37,260 nt of DNA from Chloroflexota bacterium (lineage in GTDB: Bacteria; Chloroflexota; Chloroflexia; QHBQ01). The DNA is taken from positions 1-37,260 of the forward strand of contig JAYUUN010000070.1 of assembly GCA_043754535.1 (NCBI GenBank), in the 5' to 3' direction. A program made the position numbers. This document shows, piece by piece, positions 18,001 through 24,000 of this stretch (position 1 is the stretch's first letter; every line of letters begins with the position of its first letter).

Positions 18001-21000
18001 CAGCCCCTTGGTTTTGGCGAACTCCTGGGGCATATTGGAGTGCAGATTGCAGCCACTCATGTGGATAAAGCGCGTCACCCCAGCCTTCTTGGCTGCCGCC
18101 ACCACGTTGACTGTCCCCTGGTGGTTGATGCTCTCCATCGTCTGGCTGCCCTTGTTCTTGTTGACGGCCACCAGGTGGATCACGGTCGTCACCCCCTGCA
18201 TCGCCAGGTCGAGGCTGGCGGGATCGCTAACGCTGCCGATTGCCGCCTCAGCCCCAGCCGCCTTGACCTTTGCCGCCCCCTTCGCGTCGCGTACCAAAGC
18301 ACGCACCGGCTCGCCAGTGGCTACGATGTGCGGCAACATTGCGCTACCCACGTAGCCAGTCGCCCCTGTGATAAGGATCATCGTTCGCAATCTCCTTTAT
18401 CGTCCATTACCATATTGTTCAAGCGGTTAGTTGATTCCGCCGCCCGTTTTGTTGCCGCGCAGGATGTTGTCGGCGTTGCGGGACAGGGTGTTAACATCCT
18501 CACCGAGGAACTCGCCACGCACGGCAGAGCGCAGAGCAGGGTCGCGGTTGAAGGCTCCGCCACCGAAGGCAAAGAGCGGCGGCGCATCCAGGCGCGCTAG
18601 CTGCTGGCTGAAGTCGATCACCTTGCGGGCGGTGCCATCGGTCATCGCCGACATACAGACCATCGCGGGCTGCAACTGCTCCACCGTGGTTAGCAGGTCG
18701 GCTGCGGGCGTGTTCTGGCCCAGGTAGACGACGCGGAAGCCCTGCCAGCGCAGAAAGAGAGCGGATAGCAGCGCGCCAATCTCGTGCTGCTCGTCGGGGG
18801 CGCAAGCAACCACCACGAGCGGGGCTTCGCCGTTGAGTGGTTGGAGATTGAGCAGCGAAATCAGCTTGTTACGCACATAGTTGGTGGCGAAGTGTTCGAC
18901 CGCCACGTTCAGGCTACCCTGGTGCCAGGCTTCGCCCACCCGCACCATCGTTTGGGCCAGCAGTTCGTGGCACACCGTATCAACAGGATAGACGATCATT
19001 GCCTTGCCCACGATATGCTCCGCCGCCTGCTCATCAAAGTTGACGAAGGCATCGTAGAGTTGGTCGCTGAGGGCCTTGAGTGCGCTGATCGGCGCGTCCA
19101 GGGGGAGGCTGATACTGGTCGCCCTCTGCTCCGCCACAGGCTGGGCGGTCTCCTGGTCGCCGTCATTGATAGCGTTCAGCATCGCAGAAGCCTGGCTGAT
19201 CGTCATGCCGCCCTCAAGCTGCTGTTGCAGCCAGCGGATGGTGGCTATATCACGCTCAGAGTAGAGGCGGTAGGCCTTGCTGGTGCGGCGCGGGGCAAGG
19301 ATGCTGTAGCGTCGCTCCCAGGCCCGCAGGGTACTGGCGGGGATGCTGGTCATCTTGACTACCGCTTTGGTGTTGTAGAGCGACCTGTCGTCGTGGCCCT
19401 CGATAAACTGTTTGACATTCATCTTTCATGCCCTTCATTTGCCAATAGACATAAGGTGGCTACCTTATGTGCTTTGATCTTACCATAACCGGGTTGCTTT
19501 GTCAATAGTTTGTACAGGGTTTGAGTTGGATGTGAAATAGAAGTAGCCGCCCCTGGTTGTGGGCGGCTGAGCGGGGTTGCAGAGAACAGGCAGGGGCCTG
19601 GCTGGTGGAGCAGGCGGCTGGCACTGTCGCTGGCAAATAGGGGCGGCAAGGTTGCGGCAGCCCTGGCGGTTAGTCGCTCAGGCCGTAATCGCGCATCATG
19701 CTGTAGAGTTGGGGGAGTTCGAGACTGAGGCTGTGGGCGGTGCGGGTGCGGTCGCCGCTGTACTGTTCCAGAGCCTCCATGATCGTCAGCTTCTCCACCT
19801 CGGCCACGATGCTGCGGAGGCTGTTGTGTTCGCGCACCCGCGCCGCAATATCTACTATCTTGCCGCGCTCGGTGCGCCCACTGAAGACGATCTGGTGGCT
19901 GGTGACCACTTCGCCCTGGGCGAGGACGACGGCGCGGCGCAGGGTGTTCTCCAACTCGCGCACGTTGCCCGGCCAGTCGTAGCCCTGCAACACCTGGATC
20001 GCCTCGGAGGAGATGCGGGCGGGCGGCGAGTCGTCGGTATAGCGGTGCTTCTCCAAGAAGTGTTCGGTCAGCAGCGGGATGTCCTCTTTGCGCTCACGCA
20101 GGGGGGGTACGTAGATGGTAACGACGTTGAGGCGGTAGTACAAGTCCTGGCGGAAGCGGCCAGCGGCCACCTCGTCCTCCAGGCGGCGGTTGGTGGCGGC
20201 AATCACGCGGGCATCGACGGGGATGGTGACGCTGCCGCCCACCCGCTCGATCTCGCGCTCTTGCAGCACCCGCAAGAACTTGCGCTGGATGTTCAGGCTC
20301 ATCTCGCCAATCTCGTCCAAGAAGATCGACCCCTTGTGCGCCCGCTCGAAGCGGCCCTTGTAGGTGGCGACCGCCCCGGTGAACGACCCCTTCTCGTGGC
20401 CGAACAGTTCGCTCTCCAACAGCGTCTCTGGCATCGCCGCGCAGTTGACTTTGACCAACTGGCCGTGGCGGTAGGTAGAGTTGGTGTGGATCGCCTCGGC
20501 CACCAGTTCCTTGCCGCTGCCGCTCTCGCCAGTGATCAGCACGGTCGCATCGGTGCCAGCCACGCGGCCAATCATCTTGTAGATCGTCTGCATGGCCGCG
20601 CTCTCGCCGATGATGCGCTCTCTTGGCCGATCTACGCGGGCGCGCAGGTTCTGCAACTCGCTGGTCAGCCGTTGCCGCTCGATCAGGCGGTCAATGGTGA
20701 TCAACACCTCATCCAGGTCGAACGGCTTGGTAATGTAGTCGTATGCCCCCAGTTGGGTGGCCTGGATCGCCAGGGTGGAACTGCCGTAGGCGGTCATCAT
20801 GATGAAGGGAACGCCGCTGCCGCTAGCCTGCATCTCGCGTAGAACAGCGATCCCGTCCAACTCTGGCATCCTCATGTCCATCAACACCACGTCGGGGCGA
20901 TCTACTTTGACTTGATCGAGCAACTCCTGACCACTACGCACTTCGACCACCGCTAGCCCCTCACCATCCAGGAACTCGCGCAGGAGGCTGCGGATGCTGT

Positions 21001-24000
21001 TGTCGTCGTCGGCGACCAGTACAGTCTTGCCAGCACGTTGGGCGCGCCGTACTTCTTCGCTGCGAGCATCCTGCTCCATCTTGCTTCCCCCAGTCTACTA
21101 CTTGCTAGCCTTGATGTTGATCGAACCGGTGGCGGCCTGGACGTTCAGCTTGCGCTCTGCTACGTTGCCCGTCGTTTGGATTGTCTCGCCGGTGCCAGCC
21201 CGCTGCACAGCATTGGGTAGGTTGAAGGCGGGATCGAGGCTGATATTACCCACATCGCACTTGCCACTGAAGCTAATCGACGGGTTAGTGGGCAGGATAA
21301 GGTCAATAGAGCCGACCGCCGTTTTGATGCTGTTCTCGCCGGGGGCAAGCTGACCGCTGAAGTTGATGCTCCCGGTTTTGGTCTCCAGCTTGAGCGGGCC
21401 ACTAAGGGCAGCGGTGGCGACCTTGAGGCTGCCGACGTTCGCCAGCAAGTCGAGGCTGCCGCCGTAGCTGCTCACCTCCACATCACTTACGTCAGCCCGC
21501 ACCTTGACTGCGACACTGGCTGGGGCGACAACCTCCACGTCAATGCTGCTATCGTGGATCAGGTTGAAGCGTAGCTTGCCGAGGTCGGATTTGGCTTCGG
21601 CGATGATCAGGAGGTTGCCGCCGTTTTGGGCCACCGTTACCTTCATCCGCTCAAGCTCTGCCGAGGCTGTGCCGTCGGTTGCGCCCCAGGCGTGGCGGGT
21701 GATGCGGTAGCTGAGGCTGTCACCGCCGCGCACTGTCACCCTGCCAATCTGGTTCTGCACTTCAATGCTGCTAGCCGCTGCCACTTCGGGGCCGCTCTGC
21801 TGCACGCTGGTCTTCTCGGCCAGCCCCAGGCTGAGGCCGACGTTGGTGAAAGCCCCCAGCACCAGCAGGATCAGCAGTATGAGGCCGATGGTGGCAAGCA
21901 GGCTGACGCAGCCGTTACCCCCGCTTCGATTGAGCATCTATCCTCCTCCCCAGCAGTTAGCTGGCTGGCCGCCACTTGCGGCCCGCTCCGTTCTCTCCTT
22001 GCCATGATAAGCTATCGGGGCAAGTCTGTCAAATTGCGGTGATAAAGTAGCTGGGTTGGGGTTACTTGGTGGTCACCACGTCCGTCTTGACGTACCAGCC
22101 ACCGAGGGTGCGGAAGCGGTCGCTGCTCTCGTACATCGCGGGCAGGATTACGCCCGCCACCCGACTGCTGGTGGCATAGCAGTAGAGGGGGTAGTAGAGG
22201 GGCAGGCTGGGTAGCTCGTCGGCGAAGATGCGCTGGAAGTCGGCGTAGTAGGCAGCGCGCTTGAGTGGGTCACTGCTCTGGCGGCCATTCTCCATGTCGC
22301 GGTCGGCCTGGTCGTTCTGCCAGCCTGCAAAGTTGATACCCTGGGGGTCATCGGCCTGGGTCGAGTGCCAGAGGCTGTAGGGATCGGGTTCGTAGGGCAG
22401 GCTCTGCCAACCGAGCAGCACCGCGTCAAAGTTGCGTGCTTGCAGGTGTTCTTCGATCAACTGGTTGCGGCTGAGCAGCGTAACCGTGACTGGCACCCCG
22501 ATTGCACCGAGATCGCGGACGATCAAGCCAGCCATCCGCGCAAAGTAGGGGTTGTCGGCGTTGGCTAGCAGGGTAAAGCTGAGGGGTTGGCCCGCTGGGT
22601 TGCGCCGGGTGCCGTCCGCCGTCAGCCGCCAGCCTGCCGCATCGAGCAGGCTGGCGGCCTTCGCGGGATCGTGAGCGTAGGCGAGGAGATCGTTGCTGTA
22701 CACGCCCGAACTTGGCAGCAAGGGGCTGCTGCTGACCACTCCCTGACCGTAGAGCGCATCGGCGACCAGTTGGGGGCGGTCAAGGGCGTAGAGCAGGGCC
22801 TGGCGCACCTCCTTCTGGCGGAAGATAGCCTCGCGCAGGTTGAGGAAGATGAAGGTGGTACGGCCCAGTTCTTTACTCTGCACCGTCAGACCCGGCTGCC
22901 GGGCCAGTTGGGCCACCGCCTCTGGCGCAACGTAGCTGATTGCGTCGATCTCGCCCTGCTGGTAGGCGGTGAGCAGGGTGGCGGTGGTGGGGTAGAAGCG
23001 GAAGACTAGCCGCTGGATGTAGTACGGTAGGCTGGCGGGGCCGACGTTCGCCAGATGGTAGCGGCCATAGCGTTCGAGGGTAATTGCCGCTGGCCCTGGG
23101 CCGGGTGTGCCGTCACCGCTGACCAGCCGATAGGGTCCCGTGCCAATCGGCTGCTGATTGAGGGCAGCGGGGTTGCTGGCAAGCAGGTGAGCAGGTAGGA
23201 TCGCCAGGGTGGTGAGGCCGAGGAAGGGGGCATAGGCCTGGGGCAGGCTAAACTCCACTGTCGCGCTGTCCACCGCCTGGGCCGTCACCTGCTGCCAGGG
23301 GGCAGCCAGGGTCGCATCACCGGCGAAGGCTGGGTCTTTGAGCAGGGCGACGGTGGAGAGGACATCGGCGGCGGTGAAGGGCGCGCCGTCGTGCCAGGTC
23401 ACCTCGCGGCGCAGGTTGAAGCGGTAGCGGGTGCCGTCACTGCTAGCCTGCCAGTTGGTAGCAAGGTCTGCCACCAACCTGCCGTCCCCATCGCGGCGCG
23501 TGAGGCCGCTGAACAGCAGGCTGCCAACGTCACGTTCGGCATCCTCGCGGGCAAAGAGGGGGTTGAGGTTGAGGCGGGCCACCCCACCAGCAGGCAATGT
23601 AACCCCTTCGATCATCGTGCCACCGACGGCAGGCCGCTCCTGACCAGTGGGCAGGGCGGTAAGTACCAGTAGCAGGCAGAGGATGATACCCACCGCCGCG
23701 ATAATCGCCTGGGTGCGGAAGCCGCGCACCATCTGCTTAGGCTGGCTTTGCGCTGATGATGGCGTAGATCAGGACGATCAGCAGGAAGGCAGCGGCCAAG
23801 CCAATGGTCAGGCGGAAGATGAGCAGTTCGAGACCGCGCCGCGAGCGGTAGACCGAGCCAGCATCGCTGCCGAAGCCGCCACTGAAGGCCGACGAGCGGC
23901 TCTGGGTCAGGATCAGGGCGATCAGGCTGATGCCCAGGATGATCATCACGATGTCGAACGAAACATTAAAGTTCAACGGGAACTACTCCTTCTAAGCAGG

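Follow-up and report, generated by a model that had tools for sequence, protein, structure and literature searches.

A putative sigma-54 regulon of general-stress type under one activator in a Chloroflexota bacterium and its relatives

Introduction

In better-studied bacteria, general stress protection is entrusted to sigma-70-family factors that are switched by partner exchange or proteolysis: SigB in Bacillota, RpoS in Gammaproteobacteria and the EcfG-PhyR-NepR system in Alphaproteobacteria. Their regulons include CsbD, YflT, YtxH, Dps, GlsB-like proteins, a mechanosensitive channel and SDR proteins. Sigma-54 is usually divided among many activators with small regulons. Helicobacter FlgR serves flagella, and Borrelia Rrp2 and RpoN act through rpoS. 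As described in the available part of its source, CtcC of Chlamydia trachomatis is a response regulator without a DNA-binding domain whose sigma-54 regulon has 64 genes, 33 of them direct (PMC7482065); an excerpted account states that Rrp2 keeps a potential HTH and needs no enhancer at rpoS, and that FlgR has no HTH (PMC1976401). The accessible section of Francke et al. (2011) lists Herpetosiphon aurantiacus with one sigma-54 and one EBP (PMC3162934), so the one-activator state was already on record for a member of the Chloroflexi; that section gives the count, with no regulon or function for the activator.

We analyzed a window of 37,260 nt (contig JAYUUN010000070.1) from a Chloroflexota bacterium. 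A genome-wide survey's note had proposed that sigma-54 and a single activator encoded here run the general stress response of the order. The comparisons below suggest that this bacterium and many relatives do appear to switch on general stress-protection genes by sigma-54 and one activator. The literature searched held no description of such a sigma-54 stress regulon, and the searchable papers none of how these bacteria survive stress without SigB.

Results

A single activator

The activator gene and its features are listed in Table 1. The survey's claim that it is the only enhancer-binding protein of the genome (an 89%-complete bin) was borne out, with a single strong PF00158 match (E 7e-72) and the remaining six of seven matches partial (E 1.8e-9 or weaker). 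The single rpoN was likewise found. The phospho-acceptor D68 is unchanged in 15/15 aligned orthologues, the Walker A (GESGSGKE) and Walker B (IFLDEIG) motifs are intact, and the R-finger and sensor II motifs are present. Loop 1 reads GSYTGA in g2, GAFTNA or GAFTSA in family f2 and GAFTGA in many other orders; the available part of Francke et al. classes the loop substitutions seen here as functional or putative, and A2-to-S as functional (PMC3162934). With a phospho-Asp in its receiver domain and a permitted GAFTGA variant in its AAA+ domain, the protein has the receiver and AAA+ features of a functional bEBP of response-regulator type (Ia). Matches to NtrC/AtoC-family profiles all fell under the curated cut-offs. 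The matrix scan described below placed no sigma-54 site before the activator (best 1.7 bits) or before rpoN in this genome.

Table 1. Location of the activator, its domains and associated genes (C1 and C48 are other contigs of the same genome)
Feature	Position	Strand	Basis or remark
Sigma-54 activator (bEBP), 469 aa, REC-AAA+-HTH_8	19670..21079	-	Profile matches and sequence
Receiver domain, residues 20-128	20696..21022	-	PF00072, E 2e-31
AAA+ sigma-54 interaction domain, residues 156-322	20114..20614	-	
Loop 1, GSFTGA	20372..20389	-	Sequence
Fis-type HTH	19685..19807	-	At Pfam cut-off, 22.0 bits
Recognition helix ELPQLYSM, residues 454-461	19697..19720	-	No Lys or Arg, net charge -1
Upstream gene, 18 nt from activator	21098..21937	-	Weak LiaG-family match
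GAF-DHp pseudo-kinase ("GAF kinase")	C1:57471-58790		HisKA matched, no HATPase_c
REC/degenerate-GGDEF partner	C1:58841-59683		
rpoN	C48:64282-65757		Only one in this genome

About one hundred predicted sigma-54 promoters

The untrained pattern TGGCA-N7-TGC occurred 77 times in 2,254 upstream regions, versus 19-24 times with shifted spacing; tandem regions had 38 sense and 11 antisense occurrences (9.0 ± 2.9 in shuffles). The survey had conceded that its matrix was trained on the regions it scored. We therefore used five-fold cross-validation with sigma-70 -10 boxes masked, which returned 105 regions at 11 bits or more (36/25/30 with shifted spacing) and 80 at 12 bits or more (18/9/21), and in tandem regions 59 sense and 13 antisense sites. 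The excess over chance plateaus at 93-101, with ∼29% of the 11-bit hits expected to be false. Some 95-100 sites above chance survive the retest, the low end of the 100-140 proposed; the 154 sites at 12 bits or more (139 after removal of look-alikes) shrank to 114 unmasked and 101 masked with our full matrix. Sites do lie mostly 25-130 nt before the start (83/105). Without masking, EM training slid toward the extended -10 motif of sigma-70, and that run was set aside; the masked model errs on the conservative side and conceals some plausible sites.

Activation probably without a specific enhancer

The mean charge of the recognition helix was +0.4 in activators of the order (n = 27, including a G008 stub that was parsed as a helix) versus +2.7 in unrelated bEBPs (n = 42), the latter being other-phylum activators among the listed matches of a search of genome contigs with the activator alignment, less four of 46 tails in which no helix was parsed. 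An HTH is present in this genome and in 26/30 order sequences, G035 being left out because a contig end cuts its sequence. The recognition helix is cut off in 4/30 relatives (G008, G014, G023 and G024), which still have 32-48 exact sigma-54 sites versus 6-11 controls. Among 20 activators of other orders the helix sequences are unrelated. No enhancer motif survived correction at 79 sites of this genome (10,880 dyads, 6-8-mers) or at 74 sites of f2. Intergenic space upstream was <80 nt at 31/80 sites, and at three loci divergent sigma-54 promoters lie 13-37 nt apart.

A helix that is near-neutral, variable and sometimes cut off, together with the lack of a shared enhancer, leads us to lean toward an activator that works without a specific enhancer, like CtcC, FlgR or Rrp2. 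Less probable, though a serious competitor, is a conventional enhancer-dependent activator of the same regulon whose binding sequence is so degenerate or so far away that our dyad and k-mer tests, which covered 200-250 nt and exact words only, would miss it. HTH_8 scores 36-55 bits in 17/18 intact order activators scanned, and in f2 and f3 the HTH fold is well preserved in most activators and the helix fairly constant (D/E-R-P-x-F-Y-E-K), so these proteins may bind DNA sequence-specifically. An enhancer-dependent activator is harder to reconcile with the truncated, near-neutral or unrelated helices, with the cramped upstream regions and closely spaced divergent promoters, and with the failure of any motif to survive correction.

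A pseudo-kinase as a candidate feedback brake

The survey had named a GAF kinase as driven by its top-scoring promoter. Neither part held: the promoter (13.7 bits) ranks 52 of 105 in the cross-validated matrix, and by its motifs the protein is no autokinase, with HisKA found without HATPase_c in 5/5 scanned, the N-box Asn and G boxes lost in 7/7, and a CA fold kept without its ATP-binding residues. The H-box reads HQ[LM]RTP in 7/7, with Gln at H+1 and Thr at H+4 (T209 in 7/7), and His205 is also invariant. For HisKA proteins, an acidic H+1 serves kinase and Thr or Asn at H+4 phosphatase activity, according to the part of the source available (PMC3510030). Its DHp helix is intact and carries Thr at H+4, the sequence signature of a HisKA-type phosphatase; combined with the missing ATP-binding boxes, this makes the protein probably a feedback brake.

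A sigma-54 site precedes the gene in this genome and in 7/12 relatives, and the gene adjoins the activator in 6/6 g2/f3 loci viewed; it was found in 0/26 f2 genomes at E 1e-45. Scoring 8,000 candidates from a 5.8-billion set returned nine clusters plus two weak ordinary kinases. Eleven proteins of this genome match the canonical H-box pattern, none with a sigma-54 site. Active diguanylate cyclases carry GG[DE]EF; the partner protein has GGD[DNKQ]F in 10/10, and on this active-site motif it does not qualify as an active diguanylate cyclase.

That the GAF-DHp protein is instead a phosphotransferase in the manner of ChpT, funneling several kinases into the activator and giving positive rather than negative feedback, would suit its invariant His205, its CA fold without ATP-binding residues and the absence of a kinase gene beside the activator in this genome; we regard this as rather doubtful, since the Gln and Thr of the H-box are of phosphatase type in 7/7 and the regulon persists in f2, where this protein is missing.

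Targets and the stress assignment

The survey's enrichment in stress genes used a list chosen after the hits were seen; it persisted with a list fixed beforehand (9/105 targets vs. 2/140 controls, odds ratio 6.5, p 0.011). Small hydrophilic proteins were also enriched (11/105 vs. 62/1,982, p 8e-4). The most conserved targets, CsbD, YflT, DUF2382, YtxH, Dps, Pyrid_ox_like and GlsB-like, are hallmark SigB/RpoS-type genes, and YflT and CsbD appear alongside SigB in one listing. Small proteins without a name, genes for the envelope and for carbohydrates, a cyclic-glucan-synthase-like GH94 protein, zwf/opcA and Lon make up most of the targets. At 1e-6, 40/105 had no Pfam match, and the top-scoring target, of 72 aa, matched only unnamed Atlas clusters; some 40 unnamed proteins thereby acquire a candidate role in stress protection. 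A relaxed Pfam pass over the targets alone added DUF2383 and DUF2171, which were kept out of the enrichment count. Among the targets named earlier, BON reached 6.6 bits cross-validated and 9.9 with the full matrix, and Ni-SOD (12.7) and cyanophycin synthetase (11.1) scored only in unmasked scans, losing their sites when sigma-70 look-alikes were masked; the tal gene was not located.

In this genome no site was found before the four of four Usp genes that have an upstream region, nor before OsmC, dnaK, groEL, clpB or prkA; a search of the 89%-complete bin yielded no DUF892, OtsA, Ku or Mn-catalase. Nitrogen, heat-shock and prkA genes were located by short protein motifs, and the usable promoters are those of glnA, the amtB-motif genes, prkA, dnaK, groEL, clpB and treS, because the katE, trxA, tal and PII motifs matched wrong proteins or nothing. 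Hallmark protective genes stand under one predicted promoter class, as the survey had it. To say that the pair "runs" the general stress response claims too much, because Usp, OsmC, dnaK, groEL and clpB have no site and named stress families account for only ∼9% of targets. Part of the response could fall to the genome's five RpoD-like factors (one the primary sigma) and to about 19 further sigma-70 factors. Six of 24 sigma-70 matches were profile-scanned; the five group 1/2 factors scored 100-147 on TIGR02980 (cut-off 234) with an RpoD-like best match, and none of these five had a best match of SigB/F/G type.

A stationary-phase, dormancy or developmental program that happens to include protective genes, and is not stress-induced, is an unlikely reading of these targets. 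CtcC and sigma-54 in Chlamydia set a precedent, and a target set made up mostly of small unnamed products, envelope and carbohydrate functions, GH94, zwf/opcA and Lon fits it, as do Usp, OsmC and chaperone genes without sites; the SigB/RpoS-type character of the most conserved targets and the lack of a site before prkA argue for the stress reading instead. An NtrC-like nitrogen regulon is very improbable: the sub-cut-off NtrC/AtoC matches, OTCase and asparaginase II among the targets and one glnA-like gene with a 12.3-bit unmasked site point that way, against which the other glnA (2.0 bits) and two amtB-motif genes have no sigma-54 site upstream and the conserved targets are stress genes.

Conservation within and beyond the order

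Several of the survey's distributional claims were upheld. The activator is present in 36/40 genomes of the order, as a single match in 34, and rpoN in 40/40, with two or more rpoN matches in 20/26 f2 and 9/9 f3 genomes; rpoN lies on the same contig as the activator, within 10 kb, in 20/23 f2 genomes. A matrix trained on this genome alone and then applied to the others found sites before CsbD in 22/27, DUF2382 in 19/24 and YflT in 17/28 cases (controls 0-2), or 20/25, 15/19 and 17/26 without unpublished genomes; loci with <150 nt upstream (one each for CsbD, DUF2382 and the pseudo-kinase) were dropped. The exact pattern exceeds its reversed control in 40/40 genomes, and a site precedes rpoN in 7/24 relatives.

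The survey had placed the system in this order, where it is indeed found; its scope is wider. In other orders of the class, sites precede CsbD in 23/26 cases with rpoN versus 0/4 without, and YflT in 20/24 (one locus with <150 nt upstream dropped). The CsbD gene is present in 24/26 rpoN-positive versus 4/22 rpoN-negative genomes and YflT in 14/26 versus 0/22, with class-level p values overstated because related genomes are not independent. Exactly one full-score activator was found in 43/48 rpoN-positive genomes of other orders. In f4 and f11 rpoN-positive genomes the exact pattern was not in excess across the genome (medians -4 and -8.5). That the sites are matrix artifacts or sigma-70 look-alikes, as the drift of the unmasked EM run and the ∼29% of 11-bit hits expected to be false might suggest, is extremely improbable given the spacing, strand, cross-validation and out-of-sample tests and the 0/4 CsbD genes with a site in rpoN-negative genomes.

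Discussion

A sigma-54 regulon of general-stress type under one phosphorylation-controlled activator is, in our judgment, highly probable. The genome combines ∼100 predicted -24/-12 promoters with a single rpoN and a single bEBP; CsbD, YflT and DUF2382 promoters recur across the order and rpoN-positive other orders, and where searches find no rpoN they mostly find none of these genes either. One or more stress-sensing kinases would phosphorylate D68, whereupon the AAA+ ring would open sigma-54 closed complexes. If, as seems somewhat favored, no specific enhancer is needed, sigma-54 and activator would act like one phospho-switched stress sigma factor, and any good -24/-12 site would be enough to join the regulon. 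The odds are even that the pseudo-kinase, made from a sigma-54 promoter, dephosphorylates the activator or the REC/degenerate-GGDEF partner and so closes a negative feedback loop. Positive feedback would arise in f2 from sigma-54 sites ahead of rpoN or of the activator-rpoN pair, and an ECF sigma driven by sigma-54 would form a second tier.

Like CtcC, a response-regulator activator here appears to drive a sizeable sigma-54 regulon. The CtcC regulon consists of developmental and secretion genes, whereas here stress genes are the predicted targets and direct promoters are ∼3× more numerous; CtcC lost its HTH outright, whereas here it is mostly kept and near-neutral. This genome has a sole bEBP, as in the CtcC, FlgR and Rrp2 systems; it retains an HTH, as Rrp2 potentially does. 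Enhancer-independent activation would be shared with Rrp2 and FlgR, from which the system differs in placing sigma-54 sites directly before stress genes. With SigB, RpoS and EcfG it shares target families and would share autoregulation and built-in feedback, and it differs in its -24/-12 promoters and AAA+ ATPase switch. RetS of Pseudomonas and DivL of Caulobacter, among the closest solved structures to the pseudo-kinase, are likewise kinase-like proteins of DHp-CA fold in non-kinase roles; the present one is small and soluble, is built as GAF-DHp-CA, has in addition lost its N-box Asn and carries Gln at H+1. RetS takes phosphate off GacS, in the portion of the source available (PMC5992135).

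We tentatively suggest a fourth general-stress architecture, ancestral to the class (probably Chloroflexia): an enhancer-free sigma-54/activator pair with ∼100 promoters, tuned by the GAF phosphatase and REC/degenerate-GGDEF protein, with a sigma-54 whose four-cysteine insert may respond to redox state or metal, and lost with its targets in several lineages. Sigma-54 could then become one global switch. The analysis yields a named regulator together with the motif of its promoters and a list of targets; gain and loss of rpoN alongside the targets make the idea testable by comparison, and a bench test is feasible because H. aurantiacus, for which one sigma-54 and one activator are on record, is in culture.

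The LiaG-like gene upstream of the activator is kept beside it, among 20 loci, in G036 only, and judged by gene neighborhood is not conserved with the system; in g1 it is probably co-transcribed with the activator.

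A probable sigma-54 stress-type regulon

An untrained -24/-12 pattern found 77 matches in 2,254 upstream regions of the genome under study (3,150 called genes), versus 19–24 with shifted spacing. A first EM run was dropped because it had drifted onto the sigma-70 extended -10 box, and such boxes were therefore masked. The masked matrix, cross-validated five-fold, yielded 105 regions with a site of at least 11 bits (versus 36, 25, and 30 at wrong spacing); tandem regions had 59 sense versus 13 antisense sites. Since the excess over chance plateaus at 93–101 sites, with ∼29% false at 11 bits, the lower end of the 100–140 promoters proposed in the genome-wide survey's note is right and the upper end generous.

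Using a list of general-stress Pfam families set before annotation, we compared the 105 targets with 140 genes lacking a site, picked at random among the 706 such genes of these loci. The claimed stress-gene enrichment holds with this pre-set list: nine targets belonged to it (YflT, a Dps-type ferritin, GlsB-like, two DUF305, CsbD, YtxH, Pyrid_ox_like, and DUF2382), versus two controls (OR 6.5, p 0.011). Small proteins (30/105 vs. 277/1,982) and small hydrophilic proteins (11/105 vs. 62/1,982) were also overrepresented. Lon, zwf-opcA, Nei, TspO, and VIT1 are also targets, as are a mechanosensitive-channel protein and a GH94 glucan-synthase-like protein. For BON, Ni-SOD, and cyanophycin synthetase, named earlier as targets, the sites are borderline or overlap sigma-70 boxes. 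Counted against a complete stress regulon were the 40 of 105 targets without a Pfam match, the lack of a site before Usp (0/4), OsmC, dnaK, groEL, clpB, and prkA in this genome, and four families (DUF892, OtsA, Ku, and Mn-catalase) not found in its 88.9% complete bin.

The activator has a GSFTGA loop, a type of variant ranked functional in an excerpt of PMC3162934, and intact ATPase motifs. It is the sole strong PF00158 match in the genome, and rpoN is single-copy, just as the survey had it. We accept the one-activator state despite the incomplete bin because relatives concur: among 40 genomes searched in the order (QHBQ01), the activator was a single match in 34 of the 36 having any, and rpoN was found in 40/40 (leaving out four unpublished genomes, 32 of 36 have an activator and 36 of 36 have rpoN). 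We conclude that the surveyed feature is real and reaches wider than claimed; direct control of a stress-type regulon by sigma-54 and this activator is likely, judging from sequence, beyond which we infer all steps.

We noted three features near sites. The top-scoring site precedes the gene of a 72-aa protein whose family has no name (an Atlas cluster with 757 members). An ice-binding-like gene lies 50 nt downstream of a small gene with a 17-bit site, and a stand-alone 201-aa small GTPase has an 11-bit sigma-54-like site.

Features discussed in the text, with contig (C) or window coordinates and, where available, positions in the viewed locus (L)
Feature	Position	Locus position	Remarks
Sigma-54 activator	window 19670-21079 (-)		469 aa; domains: receiver, sigma-54 AAA+, Fis-type HTH
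CarH/LitR-type MerR-B12 regulator	window 18427-19422 (-)		immediately downstream of activator; NF052513, E 2e-48, below cut-off
nnrE/nnrD	window 4894-6681 (-)		NAD(P)HX epimerase and dehydratase; two separate genes side by side
Metalloprotease pair, TldD/PmbA-like	window 24216-27058 (-)		weak matches
rpoN	C48:64282-65757	L066:11516-12991	four-cysteine CxxC-x(9-11)-CxxC insert
GAF-HisKA protein	C1:57471-58790		GAF and HisKA domains
RsbV-like and RsbW-like pair	C81:18646-19503	L076:5391-6245	
Ice-binding-like protein	C66:1878-3412	L072	PF11999, E 2e-64
72-aa protein	C108:16779-16997	L084:9889-10104	
Small GTPase	C95:7029-7634	L080:7029-7631	strong Ras-family match, E 3e-40
ECF sigma of a relative		L002:7786-8421	adjacent to rpoN

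Conservation in the order and class

The matrix trained on this genome was applied to genes of relatives (site, at least 11 bits). Across the order, a site precedes 17/28 YflT, 22/27 CsbD, and 19/24 first DUF2382 genes, versus 0–2 per control (17/26, 20/25, and 15/19 minus the unpublished genomes), and the exact pattern exceeds its reversed control in 40/40 genomes. In the class sample, 69 of 111 genomes have rpoN, and exactly one full-score activator was found in 43 of 48 rpoN-bearing genomes outside the order (29 candidates scored per genome).

Among 48 class genomes chosen by rpoN status (26 with, 22 without), CsbD is present in 24/26 versus 4/22 and YflT in 14/26 versus 0/22. Sites lie upstream of 23/26 CsbD genes in rpoN-bearing genomes and 0/4 in the others, as well as 20/24 YflT genes. 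The median genome-wide pattern excess was 16 with rpoN and -2 without. The p values for the comparison of relatives overstate the significance because related genomes are not independent. The rpoN-bearing genomes of families f4 and f11 had no genome-wide excess, and regulon size thus varies. In several rpoN-less genomes (f9 g20 and others) PF00158 still matches, though more weakly (E about 1e-45, frames of 570–720 aa), probably in a sigma-70-type homologue.

In a mostly non-subscription literature we found no publication describing a stress regulon under sigma-54 in this phylum, probably Chloroflexota, nor any on sigma-54 control of CsbD, YflT, or DUF2382. Excerpts of PMC3162934 record sigma-54 in some Chloroflexi, with H. 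aurantiacus entered as having one sigma-54 and one EBP (enhancer-binding protein). In the portions seen of PMC12316311, which predicts regulons in 33 classes, MscS and UspA are enriched in Planctomycetia, and "Chloroflex" is absent from the main text. The single-activator logic is that of Chlamydia, Helicobacter, and Borrelia; what appears new is its joining to general-stress targets.

Possible activation without an enhancer

The activator may serve its ∼100 promoters without recognizing an enhancer. Its recognition helix has zero basic residues, and mean helix charge is +0.4 across the order (27 sequences) versus +2.7 in 42 unrelated activators. A stop codon removes the helix in four of 30 complete order sequences (G008, G014, G023, and G024), and these genomes retain 32–48 exact sites versus 6–11 controls. 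Helix sequences vary freely among 20 activators from other orders; the median HTH_8 score of other-order activators is about 28 bits versus 49 in 25 controls. No shared enhancer passed correction in upstream regions of this genome or of family f2; 31 of 80 strong sites here have <80 nt of intergenic DNA upstream, and in three loci divergent sigma-54 promoters are separated by 13–37 nt. According to an excerpt of PMC3844500, any sigma-54 promoter is open to activators without DNA binding, and excerpts describe natural cases in CtcC (PMC7482065) and in FlgR and Rrp2 (PMC1976401). Specific, enhancer-dependent binding would fit the HTH fold kept in intact order sequences (median about 43 bits) and the recognition helix common to f2 and f3 activators. 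We lean toward enhancer-free action.

A putative phosphatase

The survey's "GAF kinase" is hardly a kinase: the GAF-HisKA protein has no HATPase_c match, and seven of seven aligned homologues lack the N-box Asn and the G boxes and have the H-box HQ[LM]RTP, without an acidic H+1. Excerpts of PMC3510030 state that kinase activity needs an acidic H+1 and phosphatase activity Thr/Asn at H+4, and this H-box with the lost N and G boxes is thus the signature of a dedicated phosphatase. The predicted structure has a DHp-CA fold near HK853, DivL, and RetS.

The protein is present in 5/5 f1, 9/9 f3, and 0/26 f2 genomes, its gene immediately behind the activator in 6/6 g2/f3 loci viewed. A sigma-54 site precedes it in our genome and 7/12 relatives (7/11 without G027). 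The adjacent gene encodes a REC and a degenerate GGDEF domain; it also lies behind the activator in 6/9 f2 and 6/20 other-order loci, with its own site in 13/24 relatives. A phosphotransferase is the rival reading. That the protein as a phosphatase would give feedback on the regulon seems an evenly balanced possibility.

Sigma factors and gene surroundings

Neither the activator nor rpoN is preceded by a sigma-54 site in this genome. No kinase was found among the activator's window neighbors, which are housekeeping genes, and the CarH/LitR-type regulator gene has no site.

There are 24 sigma-70 matches. The five group 1/2 sigmas are RpoD-like, none reaching the SigB/F/G cut-off, and among them we found no SigB-type sigma for the RsbV/RsbW-like pair; SpoIIE phosphatases lie elsewhere. 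Stress genes without sigma-54 sites may depend on the RpoD-like paralogues. In relatives, a site precedes rpoN in 7/24 and the ECF sigma gene adjoining it in 13/13; the best match of this ECF sigma gene in our genome has a site score of 7.2. The ECF sigma and its homologues are BldN-like (TIGR02952, below cut-off).

The four-cysteine insert right behind RpoN region I recurs in 22 of 23 sequences examined; it could be a zinc ribbon or could sense redox state. In the f2 subgroup with a cut-off HTH (L001/G024, L011/G008, L012/G014, and L231/G023), a single rpoN lies immediately behind the activator, and the REC-GGDEF partner is absent from these loci. The second rpoN of f2 (L236–L240) has its own 15–18-bit site in 5/5 loci. 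In 4/5 it lies opposite lon and/or yflT, and rpoN of our genome likewise faces lon.
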